Shown: positions 34,368 to 52,958, numbered from the stretch's first letter. The stretch is DNA of 64,000 nt from Bacteroidales bacterium (GCA_003141415.1 PLLX01000164.1:44030-108029); one strand, 5' to 3'. Made by a program: numbers and translations. Notes: a model not told the origin generated them from the sequence alone.

Positions 34368-34443
34368 TTAAATATTCGTAATCGTTATTCACGGTTATCT
34401 TATCATTTAATCAGAACTAATTTATTATGAAGTTTTCCTGATT

Positions 34444-35904
34444 ATGGATTTTATTAATTACCTCGATCGTCTGAAGATAATTCCATTGTTAAAGAAATGG
34501 GGACTTTTAAAAATTGTACTTGGTGCGATTGACATCTTTGCCATTGCACTGGCATTCCAGTGCGCTTTTTATTTAATTTTTTTAAGATACCATTTACATG
34601 CAACTTTCTTTTTTTCTGAAAGCAGAACACTCAAGCTCTTCATTTTAATTTTGCCCATCTGGCTTTTGATTTTGTATTTAATACAAGTCTCTGAGATTCC
34701 AAGAACTAAACGCTACGCGGTCCTGTTCTACGAATATTTTCAATCAACAGTGCTGATAATTATTCTCTTATTAGTTTTTTATTTCGTTTTTAAACTTTAT
34801 CTGATTTCCCGCCCATTCCTTATAGAATTTGCAATTTTTGGCCTGTTTTTCCTTTTTCTTGCCAGGTCGTTAGAGTACAAAATATTCAAAATCTACCGCG
34901 CAAAGGGATATAATTACATAAACGTAGTATTAATTGCCGACGATACGTCTCTGCATTTTATTGAGAGCCTGTTGTCAAACAAGGATTGGGGATACAGGAT
35001 AATAGCAATATTTACCGGGTCAGTTCAACTTAAAGAAAAATATGAAAAAGCTATTATACTCCTTCCTGACGAATATTTAACTGTTCTTAATGACCTGATG
35101 GAAGTTGATATTATTGATGAAGTTATATACTTTAAAAGTAAAGTTATTCCTTCAGAAGTAAGAAATACCGTAAGATCCTGTGAAGAATTAGGTGTTGTAT
35201 TCAATTTGAACTATACAGACAAAAAGGATAAACTTACAAACGCCGTTAAAACAGAAATTGGCAACCAAAAATTCCTGACTTTTATTAATATACCTCATAA
35301 TACATTTGCACTGGCGATTAAAAAGATAATGGATATCTGTGTATCTCTTTTCTTGATAATATGTTTATCTCCTGTTTTATTGGCCATTGCCATTTTTATA
35401 AAAATTACCTCCCCGGGCCCGGCAGTATTCACGCAAGCCAGAGTAGGATTAAGAGGTCGGCAGTTCAGCCTCTATAAATTCAGGACCATGATTGCCAATG
35501 CGGAAATACTTAAAAAGGAGCTCGAAGCTGATAATGAAGCTGACGGACCAGTTTTTAAAATTAAAGATGACCCGCGTGTTACCAAAATAGGGAAATTCCT
35601 TAGAAGAACTGGACTTGATGAATTGCCTCAACTCTTTAATATTATAAAAGGGGAAATGTCGTTGATTGGTCCCCGTCCTCCACTCCCAAGCGAAACAGTT
35701 CAGTATAAGCGCTGGCAATTGAGACGTCTTTCCGTAAAGCCGGGGCTATCTTGTTTCTGGCAGATAAAACCAGACAGAAACAATATAAAGTTCGAAAAGT
35801 GGATGGAATTGGATTTAGCCTATATAGATAATTGGTCTCTTCGATTAGATTTTATAATTTTACTGAAAACAATTAAAACAGTTTTTTTGAGAACAGGTTT
35901 GTGA
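34444..35904 (+). CDS. Polyprenyl-phosphate glycosyl-1-phosphate transferase (WbaP/EPS priming enzyme, Bac_transf family)
   Basis: N-terminal TM helices. C-terminal SPGPAVFTQARVGLRGRQFSLYKFRTM...DGPVFKIKDDPRVTKIGKFLRRTGLDELPQLFNIIKGEMSLIGPRP. Confidence 0.9.
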   Translation: MDFINYLDRLKIIPLLKKWGLLKIVLGAIDIFAIALAFQCAFYLIFLRYHLHATFFFSESRTLKLFILILPIWLLILYLIQVSEIPRTKRYAVLFYEYFQSTVLIIILLLVFYFVFKLYLISRPFLIEFAIFGLFFLFLARSLEYKIFKIYRAKGYNYINVVLIADDTSLHFIESLLSNKDWGYRIIAIFTGSVQLKEKYEKAIILLPDEYLTVLNDLMEVDIIDEVIYFKSKVIPSEVRNTVRSCEELGVVFNLNYTDKKDKLTNAVKTEIGNQKFLTFINIPHNTFALAIKKIMDICVSLFLIICLSPVLLAIAIFIKITSPGPAVFTQARVGLRGRQFSLYKFRTMIANAEILKKELEADNEADGPVFKIKDDPRVTKIGKFLRRTGLDELPQLFNIIKGEMSLIGPRPPLPSETVQYKRWQLRRLSVKPGLSCFWQIKPDRNNIKFEKWMELDLAYIDNWSLRLDFIILLKTIKTVFLRTGL

Positions 35905-35923
35905 TTTTATATAATTATGATTT

Positions 35924-36694
35924 ATGCCAAAGAAAATAAAGTACCGTTTATGCGAAGCGGTTGTCATTTTATCGATGATTATTACTGCTTCATGTGTTCC
36001 TGTAAAGGATATAAATTATTTCAACGATTATAGTGAGCTTGCAGAACCCGGAGTTAATCCAAGGACCCAAAAGCTTATTATGCCATTTGATAAACTTTAT
36101 ATTAAAGTAATAAGTATTGATCCACAGACCAGCCAGATATTTAATGCTACCGAAGAAATAAGGAGTGGCGGTAGCAATGGTATTCTCGGCTACCTTGTTG
36201 ATGAAAAAGGTGATGTAAATTTTCCTTTCGTCGGTAATATAAACGTGGCTTCACTTACTATAGCTCAGGCTTCTGAGAAGATTCAGAAAGCAATGAGTGA
36301 TTATGTATCCAATACTTCTATAACTGTCAAATTTATTGATAATCAGATCACGGTTATGGGTGAGGTTCAACATCAGGGAGTCTACCCTTTTACCCAGGAT
36401 AAACTCAACATCTATGAGGCTTTGGGGCTCGGCGGAGGACTTACACAATATGGCGACCGCAAAAAAATCGTACTTATAAGGAATGAAAGTGGCAAAATTA
36501 TGCATTACCGGTTAAACCTTTCAGATTCAAAGATCGCAAATAAAGACTATTATTATATTCTACCGAATGATGTAATCATTGTGGAACCTTTAAAAGCTAT
36601 CTCTTCCACTTACCAGAATATCACTTATACAACTATACTTAGTTCAATAACAACTCTGATAGCGGTTCTGCTTTTTACAAATGTTAAGTTTTAA
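35924..36694 (+). CDS. Polysaccharide export protein (Wza-like; Poly_export + SLBB)
   Basis: Lipoprotein-like N-terminus (ITASC). ITVMGEVQHQGVYPFTQDKLNIYEALGLGGGLTQYGDRKKIVLIR is an SLBB motif. Confidence 0.85.
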   Translation: MPKKIKYRLCEAVVILSMIITASCVPVKDINYFNDYSELAEPGVNPRTQKLIMPFDKLYIKVISIDPQTSQIFNATEEIRSGGSNGILGYLVDEKGDVNFPFVGNINVASLTIAQASEKIQKAMSDYVSNTSITVKFIDNQITVMGEVQHQGVYPFTQDKLNIYEALGLGGGLTQYGDRKKIVLIRNESGKIMHYRLNLSDSKIANKDYYYILPNDVIIVEPLKAISSTYQNITYTTILSSITTLIAVLLFTNVKF

Positions 36695-36711
36695 ATTAAA
36701 TATAATATTAA

Positions 36712-39081
36712 ATGGTAAGTCAAAAAGAATCCACGTCTGAAGCTTATAATATCAAGGAGTTTATATTTTCAGCTTTGCCTTATAAATTTTACTATTTGGC
36801 AAGTATTGTTGTCTGTTTATCAATTGCTTTTATGATAAACAAATTTTCGCCAGTTGTAATAAGGGTGAATTCCATTATCGGACCTATTGAAGATAAACGG
36901 CCTTCATTACGTGGATCAAGCAGTTTATTCAACGGAGTTGCTGATTATTCCCAGGTAAGAAACCTTGAAAATGATATAAATAGTCTCACTTCCTTTAGTC
37001 TGGTCTCCACAACCATTAAAACGCTGAATCTTGAAGTAGGTTATTTTACAGACAAGACTAATATTTTCGGACATCCAAATCAGATTTACCAGGGATCTTC
37101 TTATACTGTGAATATTGACAAATCTCATATACAACCAATCAATGCCAGGTTTTATATAAAACTTATTGATGATAAGTCTTACAGATTAAGATCTTCAGAA
37201 AAAGAAGTTACTCTTTACAACTATGTTGATAACTATATTGTGAGCAGACAAAATGTTCTGAAAATAGACACAATATGCAAGTTTAATGAAACAGTACAAA
37301 ATAAATATTTTCAATTTTCTGTATTCCGAAATAAAGATTCCTATGATTCTGGTGCAAAATATGAGAATCTTTTATATTTTGAGTTTTACCATCAGGATTT
37401 ACTCTCACAAGAGTATCTTAAAAAACTTAAAGTTGAACCCGTCAGTGTCAAGTCTTCACTAATAAAAGTCTCGTTTCAGGGAGAAAACATCGATTTGACA
37501 ATTGACTTTCTGAATAACTACCTAAAGGCCTATCTCGATGCTGATCTGGCAAAAAAGAACCTTATAGCATCAAGTACGATAAATTTTATAGACAAACAGA
37601 TCTCTGAAACATCAGATTCACTTTCAAAGTCTGAATCCAAACTAAAGGATTATCGATCGGTTAACCAGGTAACTAATCTCAGTTACCAGGGGCAACAGGC
37701 GTTGGAACAAATGACTAAAATAGAAGCAGATAAGTCAGCCCTGCTGGTCCAGGAGCGTTATTATAAATATTTATTAGAGTATTTAGAAAAGAATAAAGAT
37801 GTGACCGTACTCCAACCTCCGTCTTCAGCAAATGTCAATGACCCAATAATGAACTCACTTGTAATAGAACTACAATCGCTGAATAGTCAAAGGGCAAGCT
37901 TATTAAGCAATAACTCAGGGAAAAACCTGTTCCTGGGGCAAATCGAAAATAAGATCAAATTACAGAAACAGGCTATAATTGAAAATGTTACAAATAGTCT
38001 TAACACATTGAATCTTAGTGAGAATGAACTGAATTACCGTGCTGAAAAACTTTCAGGAGAGATTTCCAAGCTGCCAAGAACCGAACTCAATATGGTCAGT
38101 ATGCAACGGAAATTCAATCTTAGTGATGCGATCTATACTTTCCTGCTTCAAAAGCGAGCTGAATCAGAGATTACATTGGCTTCAAATATTCCCGATTACG
38201 AGATTATGGAGCCGGCCCGCGAGACCTCACGAACAGTCCTCTCGCCCAAAACGATGATTAACTACTTAGCAGCGATCTTTCTTGCTTTTATGGGTCCGAC
38301 ACTTTTCATTATATTAAAAAAATACTTTAACGAAAAGATAACCTCCGTTTCAGATGTCCAGCGTCTGATGGACCGAAATGTTTTTGGAATAATTTATAGT
38401 AACTTAACTAAAACCGAAGCTGTTGTTCCTGATTTTCCAGATTCTTCGATTGCAGAATCATTCAGAAACCTGCGTAGTAGTGTTTTCCTTAGGCTTAGAT
38501 CGGAAGCATCAAAAGTAATATTGGTTACCTCCGCCCAACCGCGTGAAGGAAAAAGTTTCATCGCTTTTAACCTGGCAGCCTCAATAGCATCTGTAGGCCA
38601 TAAAACAATTATACTGGATTGCGACTTACGCAGACCGACGCTACATTTAAAGTTCAAAGAAGCCAATTCAACTGGGCTTTCAGTTTATATGGCTAAGCAG
38701 GCTAACAAAGATGAGATCATTAAGAAGACCTTCGTCCCAAATCTTTCATTTATACCCGCGGGCCCGCAATTACCGAATCCGTCTGAACTTATGGAGTCAG
38801 GAATTCTTGATGACCTGATAACAACTCTTAAAAGCAAATTTGATTATATAATTCTTGACACAACACCAGCCGGTATTGTAGCCGATGCGTTCCAGATGAT
38901 GAAACATGCATCACAGATCCTTATGGTATGCAGAAATAATTATACTCGTAAAGATGTATTTATTGAGGTCATTAATAATTTACAGTCAAATAAATTTGCC
39001 AATTACGATGTTGTGTTTAATGATCTTGATCTGAAGAGAAGCCAGATCGGAGCTTATAACAGCTATTATCACAAAGAATAA
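36712..39081 (+). CDS. Polysaccharide co-polymerase / tyrosine autokinase (Wzc/GumC-like)
   Basis: 789 aa with two TM segments flanking a coiled-coil periplasmic domain. C-terminal Walker A VTSAQPREGKSFIAFNLAASIA, plus ILDCDLRRP and IILDTTPAG. Confidence 0.85.
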   Translation: MVSQKESTSEAYNIKEFIFSALPYKFYYLASIVVCLSIAFMINKFSPVVIRVNSIIGPIEDKRPSLRGSSSLFNGVADYSQVRNLENDINSLTSFSLVSTTIKTLNLEVGYFTDKTNIFGHPNQIYQGSSYTVNIDKSHIQPINARFYIKLIDDKSYRLRSSEKEVTLYNYVDNYIVSRQNVLKIDTICKFNETVQNKYFQFSVFRNKDSYDSGAKYENLLYFEFYHQDLLSQEYLKKLKVEPVSVKSSLIKVSFQGENIDLTIDFLNNYLKAYLDADLAKKNLIASSTINFIDKQISETSDSLSKSESKLKDYRSVNQVTNLSYQGQQALEQMTKIEADKSALLVQERYYKYLLEYLEKNKDVTVLQPPSSANVNDPIMNSLVIELQSLNSQRASLLSNNSGKNLFLGQIENKIKLQKQAIIENVTNSLNTLNLSENELNYRAEKLSGEISKLPRTELNMVSMQRKFNLSDAIYTFLLQKRAESEITLASNIPDYEIMEPARETSRTVLSPKTMINYLAAIFLAFMGPTLFIILKKYFNEKITSVSDVQRLMDRNVFGIIYSNLTKTEAVVPDFPDSSIAESFRNLRSSVFLRLRSEASKVILVTSAQPREGKSFIAFNLAASIASVGHKTIILDCDLRRPTLHLKFKEANSTGLSVYMAKQANKDEIIKKTFVPNLSFIPAGPQLPNPSELMESGILDDLITTLKSKFDYIILDTTPAGIVADAFQMMKHASQILMVCRNNYTRKDVFIEVINNLQSNKFANYDVVFNDLDLKRSQIGAYNSYYHKE

Positions 39082-39134
39082 TAATATTTAAACTGTTTCC
39101 CCATTTGTCTATCTAATTTTTTATAATCTTATAT

Positions 39135-39395
39135 ATGGAGCAAGAAGTTTTGACAATCAAACAAAAGGTTAATGAATATGTTTTAGAACATACGTTTGCT
39201 GAAAAACATAAAATTCAGGACGATTCCTTAATTTTTAAAGAGGGGTACTTTGATTCAATGGGATTTATAATGCTAATCACATTCATAGAAGAAGAATTTG
39301 CATTAAAGACAAGTGATTCGGACCTCATAGAAGAAAATTTTGAATCAATCAATGCAATAACTTCTTATATACTCAGGAAAAAAACAAAACAGTAG
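39135..39395 (+). CDS. Acyl/peptidyl carrier protein
   Basis: 86 aa. GYFDSMGFIMLITFIEEEF contains the phosphopantetheine-attachment (D)S(M/L) motif. Confidence 0.75.
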   Translation: MEQEVLTIKQKVNEYVLEHTFAEKHKIQDDSLIFKEGYFDSMGFIMLITFIEEEFALKTSDSDLIEENFESINAITSYILRKKTKQ

Positions 39396-39426
39396 AATAT
39401 AATTCTACTTCCTTAACCCAACAAAG

Positions 39427-41424
39427 ATGTGCGGAATAGTAGGAATTTATAATAGTGCGGAAACTTTGCGCAATCCCGAAGCCCTGTTGACGAGAATGCT
39501 AGCGCGCATACAATATAGGGGACCCGATGAAAGTGGCATATACATCAATAATAATGCCGCCCTGGGCAGTGTTCGTCTAAGTATTATAGATATTCAAACC
39601 GGGCAGCAACCACTATCATCAGAAGATGGTAAATACTGGATTGTATTTAACGGAGAAATTTTCAATTATATTGAACTGAAAGCCGATTTAATTCATCTTG
39701 GATACTCTTTCAGAACTGAATGTGATACAGAAGTTTTGCTGAATGTTTACCTGGAGTATGGACCGGATTGCCTTAACAGGTTAAATGGGCAATTTGTTTT
39801 TGCTATCTGGAACAATGAAGAGAAGGAATTGTTTCTCGCCCGCGACAGGGTTGGCATTCGACCCCTTTTCTATACTCAGACAGAGAACAATACCTTTCTT
39901 TTTGGATCGGAGATTAAAACACTTTTTGAACACCCGGATGTAAAACCTGAAATTGACCCGGTTTCAATGTCCCAGGTTTTCACGTTTTGGTCCACTATTA
40001 CACCAAGAACAATCTTTAAACGCATCTTTGAACTGGCGCCTGGTCACTCTATGAAAATATCTCACGGAAAAACAGTGATTCAATCATTCTGGTCACTCAA
40101 ATTTCCTGTTGAAAAAGATGCTTTTTTTAAAGGAACAATAAATGAAGCTGCTGAAGAACTTGAAAAACTATTAACAGACGCGGTAAGGATTAGGCTCAGA
40201 GCCGACGTGCAAGTAGCAGCTTATCTTAGTGGCGGACTAGATTCGAGTGCTACCACAGCACTTATTAAAAAAGTGGCACCCGAAACACTTCAAACCTTCT
40301 CAATAGGTTTCGAAGACGGGGAGTTTGATGAAACACCTTATCAGCAGGAAGTTTCAAAATACCTTGGAACACGGCATACCGCATTTACATGTACCCGGCA
40401 GGATATTGGCAATTATTTCCCTCAGGTGATATGGCATTCAGAAATACCGATTTTACGTACTGCACCTGTACCTATGTTCTGTTTGTCCAAAAAGGTAAGA
40501 GAAAACAATATTAAGGTAGTAATAACCGGGGAAGGTGCTGACGAAATGCTGGCCGGATATGATATATTTAAAGAAGGAATCATCCGGGAATTCTGGTCAC
40601 GTCAACCTAATTCAAAATACAGACCTCTTCTTTTACAAAAACTATATCCCTATCTTGCTCAATTCCAGGGAAAGAACAAGAGTATGCTTAAGTTCTTTTT
40701 TGGATATCAGCTGCAGGATACCAACTCCCCTTTCTACTCACATATATTGAGATGGAGAAACACATCAAGTATCCAGAACTTTTTCTCTGAGGAGTTGAAA
40801 TCCAATCTTAATGGTTTTGATCAATATGAAGAGGTAAAAAGGATGCTTCCACGAGGATTTGATCAGTACGACAGGTTAAACAAATCGCAATGGCTTGAAT
40901 CCTCAATCTTTATGTCGAGTTACCTATTATCATCTCAGGGTGATCGGGTTGGTATGGCAAATTCAGTTGAAGGACGCTATCCTTTCCTTGATTATCGGGT
41001 GATGGAATTTGCTGCCAAACTACCCCCTGATTATAAGATGCACGGACTTAATGAGAAGTTCATACTAAAGCGTATGATGAATAAGCGTTTGCCTGAAAGT
41101 GTTTTGAAAAGACCCAAACAAGCTTACAGAGCACCAATTGCAGGCAGCTTTTTATCATCACCTGCAAGGGAATATGTCATGGATCTGCTTTCTGATCAGG
41201 ATATTAATAAAACCGGAATGTTCTCTTATAATGCAGTTCACAAATTACTTAATAAGATTTCTAATGGAGAACTGGTCACTGAGATGGAAAATATGGCCCT
41301 TTGCGGAATTATTTCCTCTCAACTTATTTATCATCAGTATATTTTAAGAGATAATTTCAGACCTGCTATCCCACAGTTAAATAACTGCCGTATCATTAAT
41401 GAACAAAATCCAATATACTCCTGA
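39427..41424 (+). CDS. Asparagine synthase family (glutamine-hydrolysing) amidotransferase
   Basis: MCGIVGIY is the N-terminal nucleophile Cys2. Also NGEIFNY, TECDTEVLL and the PP-loop AYLSGGLDSS. Confidence 0.9.
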   Translation: MCGIVGIYNSAETLRNPEALLTRMLARIQYRGPDESGIYINNNAALGSVRLSIIDIQTGQQPLSSEDGKYWIVFNGEIFNYIELKADLIHLGYSFRTECDTEVLLNVYLEYGPDCLNRLNGQFVFAIWNNEEKELFLARDRVGIRPLFYTQTENNTFLFGSEIKTLFEHPDVKPEIDPVSMSQVFTFWSTITPRTIFKRIFELAPGHSMKISHGKTVIQSFWSLKFPVEKDAFFKGTINEAAEELEKLLTDAVRIRLRADVQVAAYLSGGLDSSATTALIKKVAPETLQTFSIGFEDGEFDETPYQQEVSKYLGTRHTAFTCTRQDIGNYFPQVIWHSEIPILRTAPVPMFCLSKKVRENNIKVVITGEGADEMLAGYDIFKEGIIREFWSRQPNSKYRPLLLQKLYPYLAQFQGKNKSMLKFFFGYQLQDTNSPFYSHILRWRNTSSIQNFFSEELKSNLNGFDQYEEVKRMLPRGFDQYDRLNKSQWLESSIFMSSYLLSSQGDRVGMANSVEGRYPFLDYRVMEFAAKLPPDYKMHGLNEKFILKRMMNKRLPESVLKRPKQAYRAPIAGSFLSSPAREYVMDLLSDQDINKTGMFSYNAVHKLLNKISNGELVTEMENMALCGIISSQLIYHQYILRDNFRPAIPQLNNCRIINEQNPIYS

Positions 41425-41441
41425 TTAATCTTAAATCAATT

Positions 41442-42428
41442 ATGAAAAATAAAGATAAACGGCCATTCACTAAGGATATCCTCGTTATTGATAATATAGG
41501 TGCAGAATGTGAAAGAATAATTGCCGGCATCCAGGAAAACGTTTTGCATCGCCTGCACCGTATTGGAGGAGTGATTGGCATTTCAGGAGGTATTGATTCC
41601 TCTGTTTCCATGGCTCTTGCTGCCAAAGCCCTTGGAACGGAAAATTTACTGGGTATTATGTTACCGGAACAGGATTCGAGTGGCGACAGCGCCAAATTTG
41701 CACAAAAACTAGCTGATAAATTTGGTGTAAAAGCTATTACTGAAAATATTACAGGAGCATTGCAGGGATTCGGATGCTATGAGCGTCGTGATGAGGCTGT
41801 CAAGAAAGTTTTACCGGAATATGATCCAAATCATTACAAAATGAAAATTGGAATCAGTAGCTCCGGTCTTTATACCAACCTTCCACCGCTTTTTTCGCTT
41901 ACAATTATCGATAATAAAGGTAACGAGCAATCAAAACGAATACCACCCAATGAACTAAGACAAATCGAAGCTGCTTCTAATTTCAAACAGCGATGCAGGA
42001 TGTCTATGCTTTACTATCATGCTGAGCGACTTCATTATGCAGTTATAGGTACACCAAATAAGCATGAAGTTGAGCAGGGATTCTTTGTCAAAAACGGGGA
42101 TGGCGGCGCCGACGTTATGCCTATTGCCCATCTTTACAAAACGCAGGTATATCAATTGGCTCACTACCTGGGTATCCCAGGCGAAATTATTGATCGCACT
42201 CCTACCTCCGACACATATTCGGCTGAACAAACCCAGGAGGAGTTTTTCTTCCAACTGCCATTTCAGCAAATGGACCTGTTATGGTATGCTTTTAAAAATA
42301 ATTATGACCCACTGGAAGTTGGAAATGTTATGGGTAGAACCGCTGATGAAGTAGAAAAAGTATTTGGCGGTTTTGAACGTAAAATAAAAACTACCGAATA
42401 TCTGAGGATGCCACCCCTAAGCTTTTAA
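41442..42428 (+). CDS. NadE-like PP-loop ATP-pyrophosphatase (NAD synthetase family) with an internal insertion
   Basis: GISGGIDSSVSMALAA is the PP-loop. Also NFKQRCRMSMLYYHAE, GTPNKHEVEQGFFVKNGDGGADVMPIAHLYKTQVYQLA and TPTSDTY. At 328 aa it is longer than the ~270-aa NH3-dependent NadE as I recall it. Confidence 0.75.
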   Translation: MKNKDKRPFTKDILVIDNIGAECERIIAGIQENVLHRLHRIGGVIGISGGIDSSVSMALAAKALGTENLLGIMLPEQDSSGDSAKFAQKLADKFGVKAITENITGALQGFGCYERRDEAVKKVLPEYDPNHYKMKIGISSSGLYTNLPPLFSLTIIDNKGNEQSKRIPPNELRQIEAASNFKQRCRMSMLYYHAERLHYAVIGTPNKHEVEQGFFVKNGDGGADVMPIAHLYKTQVYQLAHYLGIPGEIIDRTPTSDTYSAEQTQEEFFFQLPFQQMDLLWYAFKNNYDPLEVGNVMGRTADEVEKVFGGFERKIKTTEYLRMPPLSF

Positions 42429-42443
42429 TCTTTTATACTGAAG

Positions 42444-44021
42444 ATGATTAAGATACCACAGCGTATACTAGGTGAGGCATTGACGTTCTCTGCCCGTGAA
42501 CATCCCTCAAAAACTGCTATCATCATTAAAACAAAGGAATATACATATTCCAGTCTTAAAGAAAGCTCAGAAAAGCTGGCAGAACATTTAGTATTTGCAG
42601 GAATAAAGAAAGGTGACAGGGTTGCTGTTTATATGAACAACTCCTGGCAAAGTATAGTTTCGATTTACGGCATAAGCATGGCTGGTGCGGCATTTCTGGT
42701 AATTAATCCTCAGACAAGAGCCGATAAGCTACAGTACATACTAAACGACAGCGGTGCTAAAATATTGATTTCAGAAAGCATCTTAAGTAATGAGCTATCG
42801 CAGGCATTAGTAGGTTCAACTGATATACATGAAGTAATAATTACCGGAGACAATAACAGAATAACCAGGATTCCAGGTTTAAAACTCGAGGATTTTGAAA
42901 ATATAATCACTGAGAATAATCCTGTAATCATTTTACCAGAGATCATCCCGAATGATCTCGCTGCGTTAATATATACTTCCGGCAGCACAGGCTTTCCCAA
43001 AGGAGTGATGATGACACATCAATCAATGGTCTTTACTTCGTGGAGCCTTGTTGAATATCTGAGGTTATCAGAGGAGGACCGTATAATATTGTTATTGCCA
43101 CTCGCATTTGACTATGGATTATATCAACTTCTTATGGCAATTACAATCGGAGGTTCTCTGATTGTTGAGCAATCATTTACTTTTCAAACATCTGTCTATA
43201 AACAAATTGATCTGTTCAAACCGACAGTTTTTCCCGGTGTACCAACAATTTATGCCATGATGATTGCTGCAAATAAGAAGACTGGGCTATCATTTGATTG
43301 CATTAAGAAAGTAACAAATACAGCTGCTGCCCTACCTGTTGAATTCATCCCAGATCTTAAGAAAATATTCCCCGAAGCGTTAATCTTTAAAATGTACGGA
43401 TTAACAGAATGTAAAAGAGTGTGTTATCTGGAACCTGAATTAGTTGATATAAAACCTGATTCAGTTGGAAAAGCTATACCAGGAACCGAGGTCTTTTTAT
43501 TATCCCCCGAAGGGAACCCTGTATCACCAGGCGAAAAGGGCATCTTGCATATCCGTGGCCCTCATGTTATGTTGGGCTATTGGCATAAAGAAGAGCTTAG
43601 TAAGGAAATGCTCAGGCCAGGTAAACTGCCAGGTGAAATAATCTTATGCTCAAATGACTGGTTTAAAATGGATGATGAAGGGTTTTTATATTTCCTCGGC
43701 AGAACAGATGACATAATTAAAACCAGAGGAGAAAAAGTCAGTCCGGCAGAAATTGAAAATATCATTTATAAAATTGAGGGGATTAAAGAAGTTGCAGTTA
43801 TTGGTATTCCTGATGAGATAATGGGAGAATCAATTATTGCCTATGTTACAACACATGGCAAGTTACAAATAGGAGAAAAGGAAATACAAAAAGAATGCAT
43901 GTCAAGGTTGGAGTTATTCATGGTTCCCCAGCGTATAATTTTCTTAGATGAAATGCCTAAGAGTTCCAATAGTAAGATCGATAAAAAAGAACTTAAAAAA
44001 ATGTATCTGGAAAATGAATAA
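42444..44021 (+). CDS. AMP-forming adenylating enzyme (acyl-CoA synthetase / carrier-protein ligase family)
   Basis: LIYTSGSTGFPKGVMMTH is the AMP-binding core. Also YGLTEC, GDWFKMDDEGFLYFLGRTDDIIKTRGEKVSPAEIE and the terminal K in SNSKIDKKEL. Confidence 0.9.
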   Translation: MIKIPQRILGEALTFSAREHPSKTAIIIKTKEYTYSSLKESSEKLAEHLVFAGIKKGDRVAVYMNNSWQSIVSIYGISMAGAAFLVINPQTRADKLQYILNDSGAKILISESILSNELSQALVGSTDIHEVIITGDNNRITRIPGLKLEDFENIITENNPVIILPEIIPNDLAALIYTSGSTGFPKGVMMTHQSMVFTSWSLVEYLRLSEEDRIILLLPLAFDYGLYQLLMAITIGGSLIVEQSFTFQTSVYKQIDLFKPTVFPGVPTIYAMMIAANKKTGLSFDCIKKVTNTAAALPVEFIPDLKKIFPEALIFKMYGLTECKRVCYLEPELVDIKPDSVGKAIPGTEVFLLSPEGNPVSPGEKGILHIRGPHVMLGYWHKEELSKEMLRPGKLPGEIILCSNDWFKMDDEGFLYFLGRTDDIIKTRGEKVSPAEIENIIYKIEGIKEVAVIGIPDEIMGESIIAYVTTHGKLQIGEKEIQKECMSRLELFMVPQRIIFLDEMPKSSNSKIDKKELKKMYLENE

Positions 44022-44934
44022 ATCAGAACTATTTAAGAGTATTAGCAATGATTTAAAAAACAGACTTCATCTGCTGGAAGATAAACCTGAGGAGACAATT
44101 GAAACAACATTAAAAGCGTTGTGGTTCACTGCTGCTGGATTTCCGGTTTCAGCAGAAGGTGCCCGTAAATTGTCAATACCTGATCTTACAGATAAGCAGA
44201 TAAAGAATTTACATCAATTAATAGAAATCAGACTCAATAATACTCCGCTTGCGCATATAACAAAACGGCAAAATTTCATGGGGATTGAATTGCTTTCCGA
44301 TAAGAGAGCATTAATCCCACGGAAAGAAACTGAATTATTAGGCAGGAAAGCCTTAGAGCTATCCAACAGAATTGTCAAATCAAGGGGTAAAATAAATGTT
44401 ATAGATGTTTGTTGTGGATCAGGAAATCTGGGTGTCGCCATTGCCCATTACAATACAAATTGCCATGTTTTCGCGACAGATATTTCACAGGAAGCTGTTG
44501 AACTCACCCAGGATAATATTAATTTATTGAATTTAAACCAGCGTGTACAAGTCAAACAAGGAGATTTATTATCTGTATTTGAAACCGATGAGTATTATGA
44601 AAAAACTGACCTCATTATCTGCAATCCTCCTTATATACTAAGTTCAAAAGTCCAAAAAATGGATTCAGAAATTGCATCTAATGAGCCGGTCCTTGCATTT
44701 GATGGTGGAATGCTTGGTATAAAAATAATTCAAAAATTAATTTCAGAAGCACCTAAGTATTTAACAATCGATGGCTGGTTGATTTTTGAAGTTGGGGCAG
44801 GACAAGGCAGCTTTATTGCACAACTTTGTGAAAGGTCACAGTTGTATCAACAAATTGAATCCGTGTCTGATGATTCAGGCAATACAAGAGTAATCTTAGC
44901 TCAAAAAGCTAAACCTGTTTACTCACAGTCTTAA
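44014..44934 (+). CDS. HemK/PrmC-family N5-glutamine-type methyltransferase
   Basis: PLAHITKRQNFMGIELLSDKRALIPRKETE, VIDVCCGSGNLG, DLIICNPPYI (NPPY) and EPVLAFDGG. I take the Met at 44014, whose ATG overlaps the ligase stop (ATGAATAA), rather than the track start at 43948. Confidence 0.8.
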   Translation: MNKSELFKSISNDLKNRLHLLEDKPEETIETTLKALWFTAAGFPVSAEGARKLSIPDLTDKQIKNLHQLIEIRLNNTPLAHITKRQNFMGIELLSDKRALIPRKETELLGRKALELSNRIVKSRGKINVIDVCCGSGNLGVAIAHYNTNCHVFATDISQEAVELTQDNINLLNLNQRVQVKQGDLLSVFETDEYYEKTDLIICNPPYILSSKVQKMDSEIASNEPVLAFDGGMLGIKIIQKLISEAPKYLTIDGWLIFEVGAGQGSFIAQLCERSQLYQQIESVSDDSGNTRVILAQKAKPVYSQS

Positions 44935-45013
44935 TGTTGAGGTGAAAAGCCTTCTATAAACGGAAATTATTACTTTCAGAGTACCGCCGTTAGCACTAGA
45001 GTTTGATTTAATT

Positions 45014-45069
45014 AAAAAAACACCCAGATTTTTGCTTGTTATTAGCCTTAATCGGCGTGTTTTCTTTTA
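45014..45069. terminator. Candidate bidirectional terminator between the two convergent polysaccharide operons
   Basis: aaaaaaa-caccc...ggcgtg-ttttctttt. An imperfect stem (aacac/gtgtt plus cc/gg with one bulge) is flanked by A7 on one side and a T-rich run on the other. The loop is unusually large (~30 nt). Confidence 0.3.
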
Positions 45070-45108
45070 GTCGTTGAGATAAGACTAATTATTAATTCTT
45101 CTGATACA

Positions 45109-45798
45109 TTACACTACTATTGTCTTTTTATAAACCTTTTCTGAATTCCCCAAAAAAAACGGAATTCCTCTTTTCTTAAATACTTTTAGCTCATATTCAT
45201 CGAAAATTTTAGATCCTCCTTCTGTATAAAATAATGTTAAGTCAGACACCGGAGTTCCAATTCCGATAATTTTAGCATTCATCTGACACAATTTACCAAA
45301 GAAGTTATCCTTGTCATTTTCTTTTTCAATAATATTATTTTCCTCAGAAATATTTTTTGCCATTCTACCCCAGACAGCCAATGTTCCAGCCGGACAAGGA
45401 CTTAGAATTGTATCAGGCATCTGGCTGAATAATTCATTAATGAGTTCGTATCGACTGAAACCTTTACAAATAGCATGAGGGAGTTTTGAAACAGGAACCT
45501 TGTTTTGTGTTTCTTGAAATGCAGGCATTAAAAGAGTTCCTCCGATACCGATAATCATCTTCAATAAATAAATTAAATCCTCCGGTTTAAAATCAACCAG
45601 ATTAATATTATCTAAAGATGCATGAACCATCACAATATCATTTCTGGTGATTTTCATATCATTAATGATAATATCAGCCAGTTGGACAAGTTTAATCCTT
45701 CTTTTTAATATAGAATTTCTGAAAAATATGAGCTTCCCATCAGAATAAATGAATTCTGAATGATTTACACCGCTATCTAATTGCACTTGACTTTTCAT
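45109..45798 (-). CDS. AAC(3)-family (aminoglycoside 3-N-acetyltransferase-like) acetyltransferase, probable amino-sugar N-acetyltransferase
   Basis: ITRNDIVMVHASLDNINLVDFKPEDLIYLLKMIIGIGGTLLMPAF and LSPCPAGTLAVWGRMA follow the Antibiotic_NAT pattern (VHSSL...GG...GTL.MPT; S.HP..S.AA.G). Confidence 0.55.
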   Translation of the reverse strand: MKSQVQLDSGVNHSEFIYSDGKLIFFRNSILKRRIKLVQLADIIINDMKITRNDIVMVHASLDNINLVDFKPEDLIYLLKMIIGIGGTLLMPAFQETQNKVPVSKLPHAICKGFSRYELINELFSQMPDTILSPCPAGTLAVWGRMAKNISEENNIIEKENDKDNFFGKLCQMNAKIIGIGTPVSDLTLFYTEGGSKIFDEYELKVFKKRGIPFFLGNSEKVYKKTIVV

Positions 45799-46895
45799 TA
45801 TTTCCCGTCAAATTTTTTTACTGCCTCAGAATAACTAATGAATTCCACTTCCTCAATTTTTTGACATGACTTAAAAAACAGTGACAGATTGTTGGCGAAA
45901 AAAAAATCTTTCGAATGGCCGATCATAACAACAGGAACAAAATTATAATCATTATTTTTTTTACAATCTGAAATAACCATTTTCATATATCGGGTTAACT
46001 CAGAATGGTCCCTCTGACAAAAATCGGCATAGTACCATCTTTGGCTCAGCATACTTTTTAACTTACTTAAAGTATTTGCTGGCCGATATGTTGGCATCAT
46101 CCCTTTTCCATAGACGCCCATGAAACCTGATATAATGTCATTAATATTTTTTTCCTTCTTCAGGTTTGATAATTTATTAGTTATTTTGTTTAAAAACCCT
46201 TTACTGTCTGACAATAAGGGAAATTCGTATATTTTTGATGTTTCATCTCTATCGCATATTTCAGTGTTGGATGCTTTCCAGGGCCGGTATTTTGAACTTG
46301 CGGAGGTATAATCTAATAATCTTAAGCTATCATCATTTTTCATTCCTTTTGATACAGATGAATCTGAAAGAAAACCGGCGTCTGTTAATGCTTTCATCAT
46401 ATTTTCTGAAGGTTGCATCTGCAGGAAACCAGCCCTGAAACAAATACACTGGTAATCAGGATTAACAGGGGTAAGAAGATTTTGAAGGTCATCTTTCCCT
46501 TTTTTTAAGTAGAAATATGCTTCATCGTAGTTATGACATAATCGTTCTATAGTTTTGCGTGAAAAATCCAGCCGCCAGCTCCCATCTTCAAATTTTGCGT
46601 CAATCCACTGAGGATGAAAATGCAGCTGGACATCATGTCCTCTTCTAACTGCATCTTTAAGCTGGGATTCAAATAAATCGATATCCCTTACGAATTGTTC
46701 CTTATATCTTTTCATTGCCCAATAATGACCCATTTCAGCCATTATTGTTAATTTAGCACCATAGACTTCAAATACATTAAGCATCTTAGCAGTAGGAAAA
46801 TAGGCCCAATTTTCAAATTCGCCGCTTCCGTTTCCATGGATCTCATAATCTAATGTAAAAACAAGGCCGATTTTCAATTTCCTTACCTGGTTCAT
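45798..46895 (-). CDS. Hypothetical protein, possibly polysaccharide-deacetylase-like beta/alpha barrel
   Basis: IGLVFTLDYEIHGNGSG and GHDVQLHFHPQW are reminiscent of metal-binding D/H motifs of deacetylase-like folds. This is a weak call made by eye. Confidence 0.35.
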   Translation of the reverse strand: MNQVRKLKIGLVFTLDYEIHGNGSGEFENWAYFPTAKMLNVFEVYGAKLTIMAEMGHYWAMKRYKEQFVRDIDLFESQLKDAVRRGHDVQLHFHPQWIDAKFEDGSWRLDFSRKTIERLCHNYDEAYFYLKKGKDDLQNLLTPVNPDYQCICFRAGFLQMQPSENMMKALTDAGFLSDSSVSKGMKNDDSLRLLDYTSASSKYRPWKASNTEICDRDETSKIYEFPLLSDSKGFLNKITNKLSNLKKEKNINDIISGFMGVYGKGMMPTYRPANTLSKLKSMLSQRWYYADFCQRDHSELTRYMKMVISDCKKNNDYNFVPVVMIGHSKDFFFANNLSLFFKSCQKIEEVEFISYSEAVKKFDGK

Positions 46896-46968
46896 TATAC
46901 TATAATTTTTGGCTGGAATTATCAGAATTCAAAAAATCGAGTTCTGGTATCATTTTATCTTAAAAAGA

Positions 46969-47610
46969 TTATTTAGGAGACAAATTCCAACTTTTAATTA
47001 TGACTACTTTACAGGGATTTCCTATTGCGATTGCATTTTTAGGAATGCTACTAATTACTACACTATTAGCGCCAATAACAGCATTTTCACCTATTGTAAT
47101 ACCTTTTAAAATCATACAGTTAGTTCCAATGAAAACATTATCCTCAATTGTTATTGGTCTTGCAGGAATATCAACCATATCATGTCTTTTATCCGGATCA
47201 GCATGGTGAAAATCATTGTCTATAATCATACTGTGCGCACCGATCATAACATTATTGCCTATTTTAATTTTTATGGCAGCAAGCAATGTAATTCCCGATC
47301 CACCGGAATTATTACCAATTATAATTTCGGATTTTTTCCTTAATGTAACAAAGGTACATCGCTTTTGCAAACCGACACGAACAGAATTCTTTGCAGAGTT
47401 AAATCTACAGCAATCACCTATAACAATATCAGAATTCTCGAATCTGCGTATTTCTGGAAATCCATTGAAAATCACTTCCTTACCTATTTTAACTCCTTTA
47501 ATACGGCAACCAAGATGTATCAGTGAATTAAAAAGAAAAATGTTGCATTTATTCCCGTATCTGAATATCCGCTCAAAAAACCAGCCGATTATATCAAAGT
47601 TATTATTCAC
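46969..47610 (-). CDS. Hexapeptide-repeat (LbH) O-acetyltransferase, WcaF/maltose-acetyltransferase-like
   Basis: IGNNVMIGAHSMIIDNDFHH...ITIEDNVFIGTNCMILKGITIGENAVIGANSVV. Confidence 0.85.
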   Translation of the reverse strand: MNNNFDIIGWFFERIFRYGNKCNIFLFNSLIHLGCRIKGVKIGKEVIFNGFPEIRRFENSDIVIGDCCRFNSAKNSVRVGLQKRCTFVTLRKKSEIIIGNNSGGSGITLLAAIKIKIGNNVMIGAHSMIIDNDFHHADPDKRHDMVDIPARPITIEDNVFIGTNCMILKGITIGENAVIGANSVVISSIPKNAIAIGNPCKVVIIKSWNLSPK

Positions 47611-47667
47611 GATAGTTGAGATTAGATTAATACTTTCATTAAATATTCCTGAAATATAATAAGGAAA

Positions 47668-48531
47668 TTATACATTCTCCGGTTTATGTTCACCGGTTAA
47701 AGTCGTTTCAGAACCATTTGTATTTATTACATCAATAATTCTATTAAACAATAATTCTGCGGCATAACCGGAAAAAATTTCATTTGGATGAGAATTTCCT
47801 GCAGAAAAAGCATTCTCAGCTTTTAAATAAATACCTCCCCCTGTTTGTAGATTATAAAAGTCCCAGATATAAATATTATCATCCGGACGATCCCACTCTT
47901 TTACAACCCAGTCAAAAAAATCTTTTGCTCTTTTAGCCTCATCCTCTGATAATTGAGATTTAACGCGGGCAGCACCGGTAAACAAAATAAATTTTGTATC
48001 GGGAAATTCGCATAACTTATCTCTCAAAGCAAGATATTGTAGTTTATAGTTACCGATTGATTTATAATCCGAATTTATATCGCTAAAGTCTTTGTCAGAT
48101 TGAATATTGCTCACCGGGAAACAATGTTTAAATATGATTACCTTATATTTCCTGGTCAGCATTTCCAGAGATGGTTCTTCCATAAAGGAATTATTCCCGC
48201 CATTCTTCACCCAGATATTATAATAATCATAAGGATAATTATGCCAGCCATAAGGAGAGCTTTTCGGAAAAGTCAACTCAGTGATTTTATGGTTTGTATT
48301 AAAATCTTTATTGTACTTCTGAAATAATTCAGGCAGAGCTGCCATCTTATGGAATTTATATGATAATCTATGACTTGCTTTTTCAATAATTTTTGAGATA
48401 AGGGTCGACCGGTTGCCATTCCAGATATTTTGTCCGGTACTATGATGTAAAAAGACAACTCGAATATCTTTTGTATCGTTTGACTTATTAAAGCTATTCA
48501 TATACATTCTCACAATGAAAGTCGCTATCAA
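47668..48531 (-). CDS. Hypothetical protein, possible SGNH/GDSL-like esterase fold
   Basis: VVFLHHSTGQNIW could be block I and GNSHPNE could be block V (D..HPN-like). Weak call; start codon uncertain. Confidence 0.3.
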   Translation of the reverse strand: MIATFIVRMYMNSFNKSNDTKDIRVVFLHHSTGQNIWNGNRSTLISKIIEKASHRLSYKFHKMAALPELFQKYNKDFNTNHKITELTFPKSSPYGWHNYPYDYYNIWVKNGGNNSFMEEPSLEMLTRKYKVIIFKHCFPVSNIQSDKDFSDINSDYKSIGNYKLQYLALRDKLCEFPDTKFILFTGAARVKSQLSEDEAKRAKDFFDWVVKEWDRPDDNIYIWDFYNLQTGGGIYLKAENAFSAGNSHPNEIFSGYAAELLFNRIIDVINTNGSETTLTGEHKPENV

Positions 48532-48556
48532 AATTACTGAAATAGGCTAACATTAA

Positions 48557-50698
48557 CTATTGTTCAACCTGAATCCGGACTCTCTGATTGGCTGGAATAT
48601 CAAACCAGAAGATAGTATTATCTCCCTCTTGTCTTAATTTTGGAGTTTCACCATCTACAGTGACAGTTTTACCCATGACAACAAGAGATAGTCCTTTAAC
48701 AGATTGTTTATTAGCATTATTAACAAAGATTGTCCCATCCGGCATGTAATCAAATGATATTTTATCGGTTAGAATCCAGTAATCCAACAGATCCTTAATT
48801 GTCGTAATGCACAGGTCACCTTTATCCCGCATCTGAGCCATCATTTCAAGAATTTTGTCAAAATATGGATTGATTACTATTTTCCCGTCTTGCAGGCTCA
48901 AAACGTCATCTTTGGTATTCCGAACAAAATAACCATGGTTAAAGAAAACACCCCAGTCTGATATCAGATTGTCAAGTAATTTCTTTTCAATATTAACTTT
49001 CCTATCCGATAAATTGCTGTAGATCTTCTCGTAATCGGTTACCCATGAATAGAAGTCTCTGGTTCTAGTAAAATGCTGCCATGCGAGCGGAGTAGGATAA
49101 GAATTTCCCTTATATGTTTTTAGTGAGTTCAATTCTCCATTGTAAACATAAAATGTGATCATTTCTTTGAATGCTGTATAAAAACTGATCTTCTGTAGTT
49201 CATCCGGTGAAAGATAGCGTTTCCAAAGGTTTACAGAAACGTCAAATAATTTCAGTTTCTTTATTTTTTCTTTAAGTGAATAATTTCTGATCATCTCAAC
49301 CGCCGGACTCCAAAAATAACAAGTTCCGTATTTTTCCCATAAATCAGCGGAATAAAACGCGGAATTTGAATTTAATCCGTCAGCAACAATAGCTTCCCGA
49401 TTAATTTGACCACTGTACATTCCATGGTCAATCCATGACTTTGTGTCAAACCTGTTCTTCATGAATTTGATAGACTCCTCCAACACTTCATGATTTGAGT
49501 TTAAGTTTTCGGGAGTATGTAAGCATATATCATAAAGACCCGTTGCATTTAGCTGATCCAGGAAATCCAGAAATTGCGGAAAATCAGGATCATCACGAAT
49601 TGAACTATATACCGCAGTATCAGGATCAGCATAGAAAACACTCTTCGTGACAGGAATCTTATGTCCTGCAAAACCGCCTGTTGCATTATTAATGTCTGAA
49701 ATATCTTCGGAACCGAAATAGGCTGCCCTATGGGTTTTAATTGAGCCACCATCAGCATGTTCAGTAAATATATAACCTGCAAGATATCCGTTTGGAACCA
49801 GCATAAATCTTGGTGTAATCTTAGGGATACCCCCAAAATAGATGGAAAAATTGTTTTTTCTAACATCCCCGGCAATGTACTTTGCCTTCGAAAGATCAAC
49901 CCATTTGCCTCCCCCTCCTTTCTGATATGGTATATTTATGAAAGGATGATCAAGATAATAGTCAAGATTTACAAATAGCAGGTTTTTCCTTGTATCTAAT
50001 TGCAAAGATGAGACATTAGGTGTATGATAAATCATTGCTGATCTCAAACCATTGCCGAAACGCAAACCCTGTTTCTGAAGCCAGTATTCCGGAGAAAAGG
50101 ATCCAAAATCAACCTGCCTGTTTTTCAGGTAAACCTCAGATACGGAAACACCAAATGATGCCACCACCGACTCGCGGCTAACAGTAATAGTTCCCATATA
50201 AAGGGTATTAATACTAATATCCAATTTTGGTTTATCCTTATGAACCGTCATTGCAAGCGTTACATATACGCCTGATTGCCCCTCACCTGCAATTGATATT
50301 ATGCTGTCATTCATTAATTTAGCTGTCATGTTATTCAACCCCCATTTTTCGCCAATACCTTCATAATCGGCATAATATGTAAGGTTCGACAGGATAGTGT
50401 CTCCTTCAACTGATTTTACCATAATCCTCCCATCGCCCTGTACCAAACAAGTATACCCGGAGCATTTGAGTGCGATCGATTTTAATCCTTTATGATTTGG
50501 TTTTAAATCAACCGAATGAATTTCAGGTAAATATGATACCGGTTTTGAAGCAGAAAAATATCCAAGTGCTATGAAAGTTCCAATTGAAAGACAAATAATC
50601 AATAAAACCCAGGGTATGATTCCAAAGATTATTTTTGTGTGCCTGATCAAAAAAGTTTTAGTTTTTATTTTTGTCCCCACCCAACTTTGGTAGCTCAT
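48557..50698 (-). CDS. 713-aa membrane-anchored protein of unknown function
   Basis: Single N-terminal TM helix (IIFGIIPWVLLIICLSIGTFIALGYF) followed by a large extracytoplasmic domain. YIFTEHADGGS, CLHTPEN and SWIDHG hint at a metal-dependent hydrolase, but I cannot assign a family. Confidence 0.5.
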   Translation of the reverse strand: MSYQSWVGTKIKTKTFLIRHTKIIFGIIPWVLLIICLSIGTFIALGYFSASKPVSYLPEIHSVDLKPNHKGLKSIALKCSGYTCLVQGDGRIMVKSVEGDTILSNLTYYADYEGIGEKWGLNNMTAKLMNDSIISIAGEGQSGVYVTLAMTVHKDKPKLDISINTLYMGTITVSRESVVASFGVSVSEVYLKNRQVDFGSFSPEYWLQKQGLRFGNGLRSAMIYHTPNVSSLQLDTRKNLLFVNLDYYLDHPFINIPYQKGGGGKWVDLSKAKYIAGDVRKNNFSIYFGGIPKITPRFMLVPNGYLAGYIFTEHADGGSIKTHRAAYFGSEDISDINNATGGFAGHKIPVTKSVFYADPDTAVYSSIRDDPDFPQFLDFLDQLNATGLYDICLHTPENLNSNHEVLEESIKFMKNRFDTKSWIDHGMYSGQINREAIVADGLNSNSAFYSADLWEKYGTCYFWSPAVEMIRNYSLKEKIKKLKLFDVSVNLWKRYLSPDELQKISFYTAFKEMITFYVYNGELNSLKTYKGNSYPTPLAWQHFTRTRDFYSWVTDYEKIYSNLSDRKVNIEKKLLDNLISDWGVFFNHGYFVRNTKDDVLSLQDGKIVINPYFDKILEMMAQMRDKGDLCITTIKDLLDYWILTDKISFDYMPDGTIFVNNANKQSVKGLSLVVMGKTVTVDGETPKLRQEGDNTIFWFDIPANQRVRIQVEQ

Positions 50699-51943: not shown

Positions 51944-51982
51944 TTATTAATTATGGGTTAGTTTTCGACAGAAGGGTTCAGG

Positions 51983-52920: not shown

Positions 52921-52958
52921 CGAATTATATCACTAGGAATTATGATTTTCGTGAAGCA

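Follow-up and report, generated by a model that had tools for sequence, protein, structure and literature searches.

The stretch of DNA analyzed here, referred to throughout as the window, comprises 64,000 nucleotides from a Bacteroidales bacterium (GCA_003141415.1, PLLX01000164.1:44030-108029). At the end of an operon for exopolysaccharide (EPS) export it contains five adjacent genes, here called the cassette, that encode an acyl carrier protein (ACP), an AsnB-family amidotransferase, a NadE-like PP-loop amidoligase, a stand-alone AMP-ligase and a HemK-like methyltransferase (Table 1). An earlier note on this DNA described these genes as a five-gene module fused to the export end of the EPS operon. 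The five open reading frames (ORFs), their motifs, the gaps of 15-53 nt and the overlapping last junction are all as described there, and the position directly after wza/wzc-like genes holds for this window. All five genes lie on the plus strand and close the plus-strand operon; the intergenic gaps measure, in order, 53, 31, 17 and 15 nt, and the stop of the ligase gene and the start of the methyltransferase gene share the 8-nt overlap ATGAATAA at 44014-44021. The family of each of the five proteins was confirmed by profile searches (Pfam, NCBIfam). None of the five genes has a paralogue in the window, which contains no second NadE-like sequence. Promoter and terminator scans of positions 33000-45300, made without Bacteroidota promoters, gave counts not above those of shuffled sequences and do not define the operon ends.

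Table 1. Genes of the cassette and other features of the window (positions counted from the first nucleotide of the window)
Feature	Position	Strand	Description
ACP	39135-39395	+	86 aa; phosphopantetheine Ser within 'FDSM' (FDSMGF)
AsnB-family amidotransferase	39427-41424	+	665 aa; MCGIVG, SGGLDSS
NadE-like PP-loop amidoligase, long form	41442-42428	+	328 aa; SGGIDSS
Stand-alone AMP-ligase (type A)	42444-44021	+	525 aa; YTSGSTGFPKGV
HemK-like methyltransferase	44014-44934	+	306 aa counted from the ATG inside ATGAATAA; NPPY
Upstream genes of the same operon	33732-39081	+	211-aa unknown, polyprenyl glycosylphosphotransferase, Wza-like export protein, Wzc-like tyrosine autokinase (NCBIfam TIGR03025, Poly_export-type, TIGR01007)
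Convergent glycan operon	45109-63883	-	glycosyltransferases, acetyltransferases, FnlA/FnlB/FnlC-like genes, several proteins without family match
AAC(3)-like N-acetyltransferase	45109-45798	-	last gene of the convergent operon, facing the cassette
c8, possible cassette accessory	47668-48531	-	~280-aa conserved protein; no Pfam/NCBIfam match
Small LbH (hexapeptide) acyltransferase	52959-53492	-	candidate for ACP-to-sugar transfer; WbbJ/NeuD-like matches
PorP/PorE-type type IX secretion system genes	30010-32513
SiaC-like gene	32573-33034	-	divergent, upstream of the EPS operon
365-aa protein	45798-46895	-	convergent operon; no Pfam/NCBIfam match
713-aa protein	48557-50698	-	convergent operon; no Pfam/NCBIfam match
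148-aa ORF	52015-52461	-	several hydrophobic segments
WecB/FnlC-like UDP-GlcNAc 2-epimerase	54727-55866	-	interrupted by in-frame TAA at 55108-55110
Tandem gene-set copies	2822-10826 and 12366-19178	-

The gene set is kept in about 80 other genomes, so its arrangement is not due to chance. With the NadE-like protein as the query for related loci, a scan limited to one genome per species gave 80; 82 related loci enter the counts, and partner genes were found by tblastn and ORF clustering. In the well-flanked set (51 loci in which the NadE-like gene has 8 kb or more of sequence on either side), the ACP is present in 50, AsnB in 50, the adenylating enzyme in 48 and all three in 46, and four of the five loci lacking the full trio (L014, L019, L061 and L082) contain gene fragments. 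The ACP gene almost always lies immediately 5' of AsnB. Where the cassette is split, the sub-pairs that survive are ACP followed by AsnB and NadE-like followed by ligase. Hosts include Bacteroidales, Rikenellaceae, Prolixibacteraceae, Marinilabiliales, Chitinophagaceae, Sphingobacteriales, Flavobacteriaceae, Ignavibacteria and Chlorobiota-labelled metagenome-assembled genomes (MAGs) and, further out, single MAGs of one Caldilineaceae and one Zixibacteria. Named carriers are Marinilabilia salmonicolor MSL42, Gelidibacter japonicus, Ancylomarina euxinus, Carboxylicivirga caseinilyticus and the chromosome OY764021.1. Databases contain over 120 clusters of the NadE-like protein itself at 78-99% identity, each of about 328 aa; its closest relatives are found in Bacteroidales MAGs and, with the PorP/PorE-type secretion genes of the window, point to a Bacteroidota host. 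Contigs with two of these homologues carry the same nine-gene operon followed by differing downstream genes.

Association of the partners is still present at 37-47% NadE-like identity, in several high-GC hosts. Locus L088 contains AsnB, ACP and a ligase::NadE-like fusion; L092, AsnB followed by NadE-like; L093, ligase, ACP and NadE-like; and L094, in order, ACP, LbH acyltransferase, a 472-aa protein, ligase, NadE-like, a GT2 glycosyltransferase, a FemAB-like protein and a second GT2 enzyme. This comparison of distant contexts left out P0123 and P0200, whose contigs are too short. Synteny in other genomes had been set beforehand as a test of the module, and the core genes prove to be co-located across phyla; together with the fusions of the NadE-like protein to ligase, PPTase (phosphopantetheinyl transferase) or carrier domains described below, this bears out the view that the genes form a functional module.

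The conserved unit is of four genes, namely ACP, AsnB, NadE-like and adenylating enzyme, and the HemK-like methyltransferase is an accessory of one version of it. The ligases fall into two classes, type A, to which the ligase of the window belongs (20 loci), and type B (about 50 loci), and the methyltransferase is regarded as accessory because it occurs in 14 of the 20 loci with a type A ligase versus 1 of the 62 others (Fisher p = 2.4e-10). Hence, of the five-gene module proposed earlier, the four core genes are conserved and the fifth is tied to one of two ligase classes. A SnoaL-like protein is a further add-on of the type A cassette in seven loci.

Substrate specificity of the ligase, which comprises AMP-binding and AMP-binding_C domains, is suggested by its pocket. 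The best single-domain match in the Protein Data Bank (PDB) is VinN (232 bits), which loads aspartate or 3-methylaspartate; LgrA ranks above it because two LgrA domains are summed. For the pocket segment alone, VinN matches with E = 2e-30 versus 1.6e-13 for the next match. In VinN, which accepts 3-methylaspartate as a beta-amino acid, the determinants are D230 (for the amino group), F231, S299, K330 and R331, the last two lying on a beta13-beta14 loop shortened by one residue (PMC11253843). These five residues (VinN structures 3WV4/3WVN) align without gaps with D, Y, T, K and R of the window ligase, so that all five are retained or conservatively replaced. The surrounding segments are likewise close ('WDFGLY' in VinN and 'FDYGLY' in the ligase, 'TNSAAALP' and 'TNTAAALP', and an identical 'TECKR'), and the shortened loop is shared. 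In VinN, K330 and R331 reportedly hold the free carboxylate. Once a VinN-type enzyme has loaded 3-methylaspartate onto its stand-alone ACP, the ACP-bound intermediate is the substrate of a decarboxylase (PMC10662134), which implies that the second carboxylate is free on the carrier. The proposal of the earlier note that the ligase/ACP pair loads an aminoacyl-type unit therefore gains support from the VinN-like pocket, which predicts in addition that the loaded unit would have a spare carboxylate.

Type A ligases share the signature F-D-Y...T...E-C-K-R, which also appears in the L094 ligase at 40% overall identity. Type B ligases carry Y-C-Y...A...E-A-T-R instead; their pocket is without the amino-binding Asp and keeps the Arg, and its closest matches are plant oxalate-CoA ligases (E = 5e-20), followed by VinN. 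With a VinN-like pocket in one class and an oxalate-CoA-ligase-like pocket in the other, both point to dicarboxylate substrates.

The two proteins encoded 5' of the NadE-like gene have intact motifs. For the ACP, the match to PF00550 (PP-binding) lies just under the Pfam cutoff (E = 1.3e-3), the top NCBIfam matches are the AmcB and DltC carrier proteins, and the 'DS' is invariant among 61 homologues. The AsnB-family protein comprises Asn_synthase and GATase_7 domains and exceeds the TIGR01536 cutoff (522 versus 267 bits). Its glutaminase with N-terminal Cys and its PP-loop synthetase are both intact, and the glutaminase and 'SGGLDS' motifs are conserved among 64 homologues. The same two-domain organization, an N-terminal nucleophile glutaminase with a PP-loop synthetase, is used for tailoring instead of asparagine supply in OxyD, an AsnB-family enzyme of the malonamyl starter unit, and in WbpS/WbtH, the O-antigen uronamide-forming enzymes of this family. 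The AsnB of the cassette differs from OxyD and WbpS/WbtH in that it is nearly always paired with a dedicated ACP gene and has a second, NadE-type amidoligase alongside.

The earlier note's description of this second enzyme as a NadE-like PP-loop protein with an insertion is confirmed by alignment to the nearest PDB entry, the Pyrococcus horikoshii NadE 2e18 (E = 1e-28), and by its predicted fold. An AlphaFold2 (AF2) model (pLDDT 78, pTM 0.79) retrieved only NadE structures when compared with the PDB by Foldseek, with a TM score of 0.80 to 2e18; identity to solved NadEs is 20-28%. As in NH3-dependent NAD+ synthetase, the PP-loop and the catalytic segment GFFVKNGDGGAD ('GFFxKxGDGxAD') are retained. 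Profile matches are strong to PF02540 (E = 1.9e-47) and pass the cutoffs of NF002048 (418 versus 313) and TIGR00552 (148 versus 63.65), whereas scores for the NadE equivalog models NF010587 and NF001979 fall below their cutoffs. The protein departs from the canonical NadE architecture (about 250-280 aa with a C-terminal His-Lys motif) in two respects. Residues 103-177 form a 75-residue segment in place of about 20 residues in 2e18, a net insertion of about 55 aa that is modelled as two helices and a three-stranded sheet, contains a conserved C-Y-x-R-R-D-E motif and gave no informative Foldseek match in the PDB. At the C-terminus, 'sEHKRr' of 2e18 aligns with 'tEYLRm', which is kept family-wide; the His-Lys motif of NadE binds deamido-NAD. 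The long-form family is small, with 264 clusters (50% identity, E < 1e-30) among 1.84 billion representatives, compared with 3220 clusters at E < 1e-10, where canonical NadEs are included. Its distribution is not that of a housekeeping gene either, and ACP, AsnB and ligase adjoin the NadE-like gene in more than 90% of well-flanked loci.

Occasional fusions also set the cassette protein apart from canonical NadE. Three proteins (P0122, P0125 and P0129) join the NadE-like domain to others: an 849-aa ligase::NadE-like fusion (P0122; three members from three assemblies) placed after AsnB and ACP, a singleton NadE-like::AcpS-type PPTase, and a singleton NadE-like::AMP-binding_C::PCP (peptidyl carrier protein), in which the NadE-like domain stands where the adenylation core would be. 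Fusions to ligase, PPTase and carrier domain tie the enzyme to carrier-protein chemistry. As for other candidates, a C-terminal extension of P0127 was rejected as a domain since it is low-complexity read-through, and a NadE::GATase fusion, P0150, may be a frameshift artefact.

Turning to the methyltransferase, its score for TIGR03534 passes the cutoff marginally (206.4 versus 199.1 bits) and the closest PDB entries are the HemK structures 1sg9 and 2b3t. It shares with PrmC/HemK, the release-factor N5-glutamine methyltransferase, the class I fold, NPPY and a 'PR.ETE' motif; NPPY and 'IPR.ETE' are conserved in 17 homologues, and alignment to the PrmC model leaves out the first 56 residues. Unlike PrmC/HemK, which is universally distributed as a housekeeping gene, the enzyme of the cassette follows the type A ligase, and its start overlaps the ligase stop. 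The chemistry of PrmC/HemK, methylation of a carboxamide nitrogen, would suit an Asn- or Gln-like amide on a tethered unit.

Based on the synteny, the core/accessory split, the VinN-type pocket, the intact motifs in all five proteins and the NadE-like fusions, we tentatively propose that the cassette carries out a carrier-protein-dependent tailoring of a cell-surface glycopolymer, in which an amidated, sometimes N-methylated, aspartate-like acid is built on the ACP. We put the likelihood of this reading a little short of even. The identity of the substrate, the assignment of amidation, the order of the steps, the target of methylation and delivery to the polysaccharide are parts of it that we infer. 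In the proposed sequence, the VinN-like ligase would activate an aspartate-like amino-dicarboxylic acid through its side-chain carboxyl and thioester it onto the phosphopantetheine of the ACP, leaving the other carboxylate free. The AsnB-family and NadE-family enzymes would then each adenylate a carboxylate (or carboxamide) and insert nitrogen, giving an (iso)asparagine-type carboxamide on the tethered unit, and the NPPY enzyme could, as an optional step, N-methylate the tethered amide. Finally, the unit would be handed to the polysaccharide, in relatives possibly by a hexapeptide acyltransferase, a DltB-like MBOAT system or a FemAB/GNAT-like enzyme. A glycan context is provided by Wza/Wzc immediately 5' of the cassette here and in about 20 loci, and by the glycosyltransferases or flippase that flank L090 and L094.

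A more specific version of this proposal would have the NadE-family enzyme recruited to a carrier-tethered substrate for a second ATP-dependent nitrogen insertion after AsnB, yielding, for example, an amidine or the amide of a second carboxylate, and a HemK-family enzyme methylating a small-molecule amide or amidine in place of a protein glutamine. Capsule or EPS would then carry an N-methyl-(iso)asparagine-type substituent, neutral or cationic, and the pathway would represent a Gram-negative counterpart of teichoic-acid D-alanylation that is widespread in Bacteroidota and Ignavibacteriota. In this detailed form we regard it as unlikely.

Several observations weigh against the proposed tailoring pathway. 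The locus sample is biased toward NadE-containing loci by the way in which it was drawn. Two amidating enzymes are conserved although a tethered Asp offers a single free carboxylate, which leaves one step unexplained; the NadE-like enzyme could insert a second nitrogen (amide to amidine), or act on another carboxylate or on a sugar. Moreover, most loci carry a type B ligase without the amino-binding Asp, so that the aspartate assignment is limited to the minority class. L088 lies outside a glycan locus. At L090, the NadE-like gene stands beside UDP-ManNAc epimerase/dehydrogenase genes and a divergent AsnB, no ligase or ACP being seen, and amidation of a sugar uronate fits better there. In addition, no PPTase, MBOAT or FemAB-like gene is present in the window, which makes the exit step here a guess.

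The strongest rival is accordingly sugar-directed amidation, in which one or both PP-loop enzymes would convert nucleotide-sugar uronic acids to uronamides or form an acetamidino sugar while the ligase and ACP supply a separate acyl group; we consider it doubtful. L090, with its UDP-GlcNAc 2-epimerase, UDP-ManNAc dehydrogenase and AsnB genes, speaks for it, as do the AsnB homologues known to form O-antigen uronamides and the FnlA/B/C-like genes on the opposite strand of the window. There may also be a substrate analogy, in that a carboxylated ring on a dinucleotide-like scaffold is common to nicotinic acid adenine dinucleotide and UDP-uronates. However, the cassette is constant and the neighboring sugar genes are variable, a contrast that also counts against the earlier suggestion of an acetamidino sugar of the L-FucNAm type made by the NadE-like enzyme. 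Sugar-directed amidation as the general role likewise sits poorly with an ACP in 50 of 51 loci, in nearly all immediately before AsnB, and with a NadE-like domain fused to ligase, PPTase or carrier domain. Among the annotated ORFs of the window there is no uronate-forming dehydrogenase, and the known acetamidino enzymes, of the PseA/WbuX type, belong to a different PP-loop family. Alternatively, the product of the cassette may be a lipid head-group or a free small molecule (for example an aminolipid, a signal or an amidated derivative of an amino acid), its location among glycan genes being incidental. No dedicated transferase is kept with the four core genes, and at L088 they lie between a resistance-nodulation-division (RND) efflux pump and CoA-transferase/3-hydroxyacyl-CoA dehydrogenase genes, followed by a weakly GNAT-like 350-aa protein. 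Most loci, on the other hand, are within polysaccharide operons, with the cassette directly after Wza-Wzc here and in about 20 of them, DltB-like MBOAT systems adjoin 20 loci, and no condensation, polyketide synthase (PKS) or thioesterase genes were seen, which together make this explanation distinctly improbable. The fusion to the export end of the EPS operon claimed by the earlier note thus stands for the window and about 20 loci, in which the gene order of the window up to Wza/Wzc precedes the cassette in Bacteroidales-type hosts; it does not extend to the family as a whole, as Wza/Wzc lie within 8 kb of the cassette in about one third of the loci and L088 has no glycan context.

Two further explanations would assign the locus to systems already named. 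The exosortase-A-type link drawn by the earlier note holds insofar as the closest named families, and best specific NCBIfam matches, are TIGR03098 (exosortase A-associated ligase) for the ligase and TIGR03108 (XrtA/PEP-CTERM amidotransferase) for AsnB, and EPS loci are the setting of both gene sets. Membership of the XrtA/PEP-CTERM system is nevertheless very improbable. The scores are far under the curated cutoffs (446 versus 592.35 bits for the ligase and 452.7 versus 816.9 for AsnB) and no exosortase is found among the annotated ORFs of the window. The XrtA set, which reportedly includes an ACP in the TIGRFAMs descriptions, is not known to contain a NadE-like gene, a pyridoxal phosphate (PLP) decarboxylase and hydrolases standing where the cassette has NadE-like and HemK-like enzymes. 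The PEP-CTERM paper itself (Haft 2006) makes no mention of a ligase, carrier protein, decarboxylase or amidotransferase. Least probable of all, to the point that we give it hardly any weight, is a coincidence in which the EPS operon ends in ordinary housekeeping genes, those for asparagine synthase, NAD synthase and a release-factor methyltransferase. The cutoffs of TIGR01536, NF002048/TIGR00552 and TIGR03534 are all passed and the NadE catalytic core GFFVKNGDGGAD is conserved, as this explanation would expect. It is contradicted by the synteny with ACP and ligase across phyla, the fusions to carrier-pathway domains, the dependence of the methyltransferase on ligase type, the small size of the long-form NadE family, and the insertion and altered C-terminal motif of the NadE-like protein.

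Among characterized systems, the carrier-bound tailoring proposed here most resembles two, and we regard the gene set as a variant of carrier-protein-dependent polymer tailoring with Dlt/VinN-like loading. The vicenistatin-type macrolactam starter pathway (VinN/VinL, with VinO) likewise combines a stand-alone ligase with a stand-alone ACP, has a comparable pocket (D/F/S/K/R versus D/Y/T/K/R) and further processes the ACP-bound unit at its free carboxylate, as we propose for the cassette. It belongs to an actinomycete biosynthetic gene cluster and handles the free carboxylate with a PLP decarboxylase, whereas the cassette has AsnB and NadE-like amidoligases and occurs in a Bacteroidota polysaccharide-export context. 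The cassette is without a macrolactam PKS or glutamate mutase, and no VinO-type decarboxylase, VinM/VinK or macrolactam PKS was found in the window or related loci. In teichoic-acid D-alanylation (DltABCD(X)), an adenylating enzyme similarly loads a dedicated small carrier for modification of an envelope polymer, and DltC is among the best matches of the ACP. The loaded acid of the cassette is probably not D-Ala because the pocket is VinN-like. Moreover, the cassette adds two amidoligases and a methyltransferase, its hosts are Gram-negative, and the MBOAT and DltD partners of the Dlt system are both missing from the window. Full-text searching of the literature found no description of the ACP/AsnB/NadE-like/ligase gene set, in agreement with the statement in the earlier note that no pathway of this composition had been described.

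If the proposed pathway is correct, an amidoligase of the NadE fold and a methyltransferase of the HemK fold would be active in a carrier-protein pathway, and both families would extend to new substrates. Within capsule/EPS loci of abundant Bacteroidota from peat, sediment and marine settings, the cassette occupies the conserved part close to the export genes, where it likely sets a decoration of the surface polymer that is relevant to charge or recognition. The curated thresholds for asparagine synthase, NAD(+) synthase and release-factor methyltransferase are exceeded by three of the cassette's proteins. Automatic annotation would hence hide a dedicated pathway, and may overcount genes of NAD metabolism and translation in MAGs of Bacteroidota and Ignavibacteriota.

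Among the related loci no transferase accompanies the four-gene core throughout, and several candidates present themselves for the exit of the tethered unit to the glycan. The small LbH acyltransferase of the convergent operon belongs to a cluster represented in 13 loci; it lies beside the ACP in L094 and, together with an Sfp-type PPTase, immediately 5' of the ACP in Ignavibacteria loci. Since glycan loci often contain enzymes of this kind, the evidence from this link is weak. DltB-like MBOATs with extracytoplasmic partners (TIGR04091 E = 4.5e-53, 181 bits versus a cutoff of 375) adjoin the cassette in 20 of the 82 related loci; tblastn found neither a DltB-type MBOAT nor DltD in the window. 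FemAB/GNAT-like proteins occur at L094 and L088. The c8 protein, a possible accessory, has homologues in 17 related loci, often beside the DltB-like MBOAT, and the L016 copy has a lipoprotein-like N-terminus. By hhalign, c8 shows no homology to the MBOAT-partner clusters c12 and c18, and c12 versus c18 is marginal (E = 7.5e-4). At L090, proteins that resemble c8 in motifs judged by eye flank the MBOAT and NadE-like gene, in a set that also includes a 51-aa hydrophobic ORF (4516-4671, ending in FIYVNF), which we take from its C-terminal motif to be DltX-like, and a weakly AlgX/SGNH-like 357-aa protein.

The L090 genes thus make up a Dlt-like set for O-acylation, with neither DltA nor DltC in view, within the glycan locus of a Gram-negative host. 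Second, independent Dlt-like sets also stand immediately beside the cassette at about 12.4-16.9 kb in L005, L006 and L007 and at about 5.2-9.9 kb in L087, each comprising a DltA-like ligase that has an 'FDL(S/C)' motif, a carrier of 80-86 aa, an MBOAT and an approximately 300-aa partner.

Other features of the window concern the glycan genes and their surroundings. The SiaC-like protein belongs to a family of biofilm-regulation phosphoproteins, which it matches below cutoff, and its gene (cluster 17) keeps its position in the relatives L001, L012, L020, L027 and L048. In the convergent operon, the 713-aa protein has one N-terminal transmembrane segment. The WecB/FnlC-like gene, in which an ATG directly follows the in-frame TAA, is split into ORFs of 252 and 126 aa that correspond to model positions 1-250 and 256-346, the result of either a nonsense mutation (a pseudogene) or a sequencing error. 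The 148-aa ORF matches the C-terminal part only of the MatE/flippase domain and looks like the remnant of a truncated Wzx-type flippase within the glycan operon. Further upstream, each of the two tandem gene sets encodes a protein of about 726 aa without family match, one or more DUF4249 proteins, a TonB-dependent-receptor-like protein of about 910 aa with CarboxypepD_reg and Plug domains, and a protein of about 237 aa of unknown family. Fucosidases, a beta-galactosidase and an apiosidase-like glycoside hydrolase flank these copies, which appear to be a duplicated module like those of polysaccharide utilization loci.

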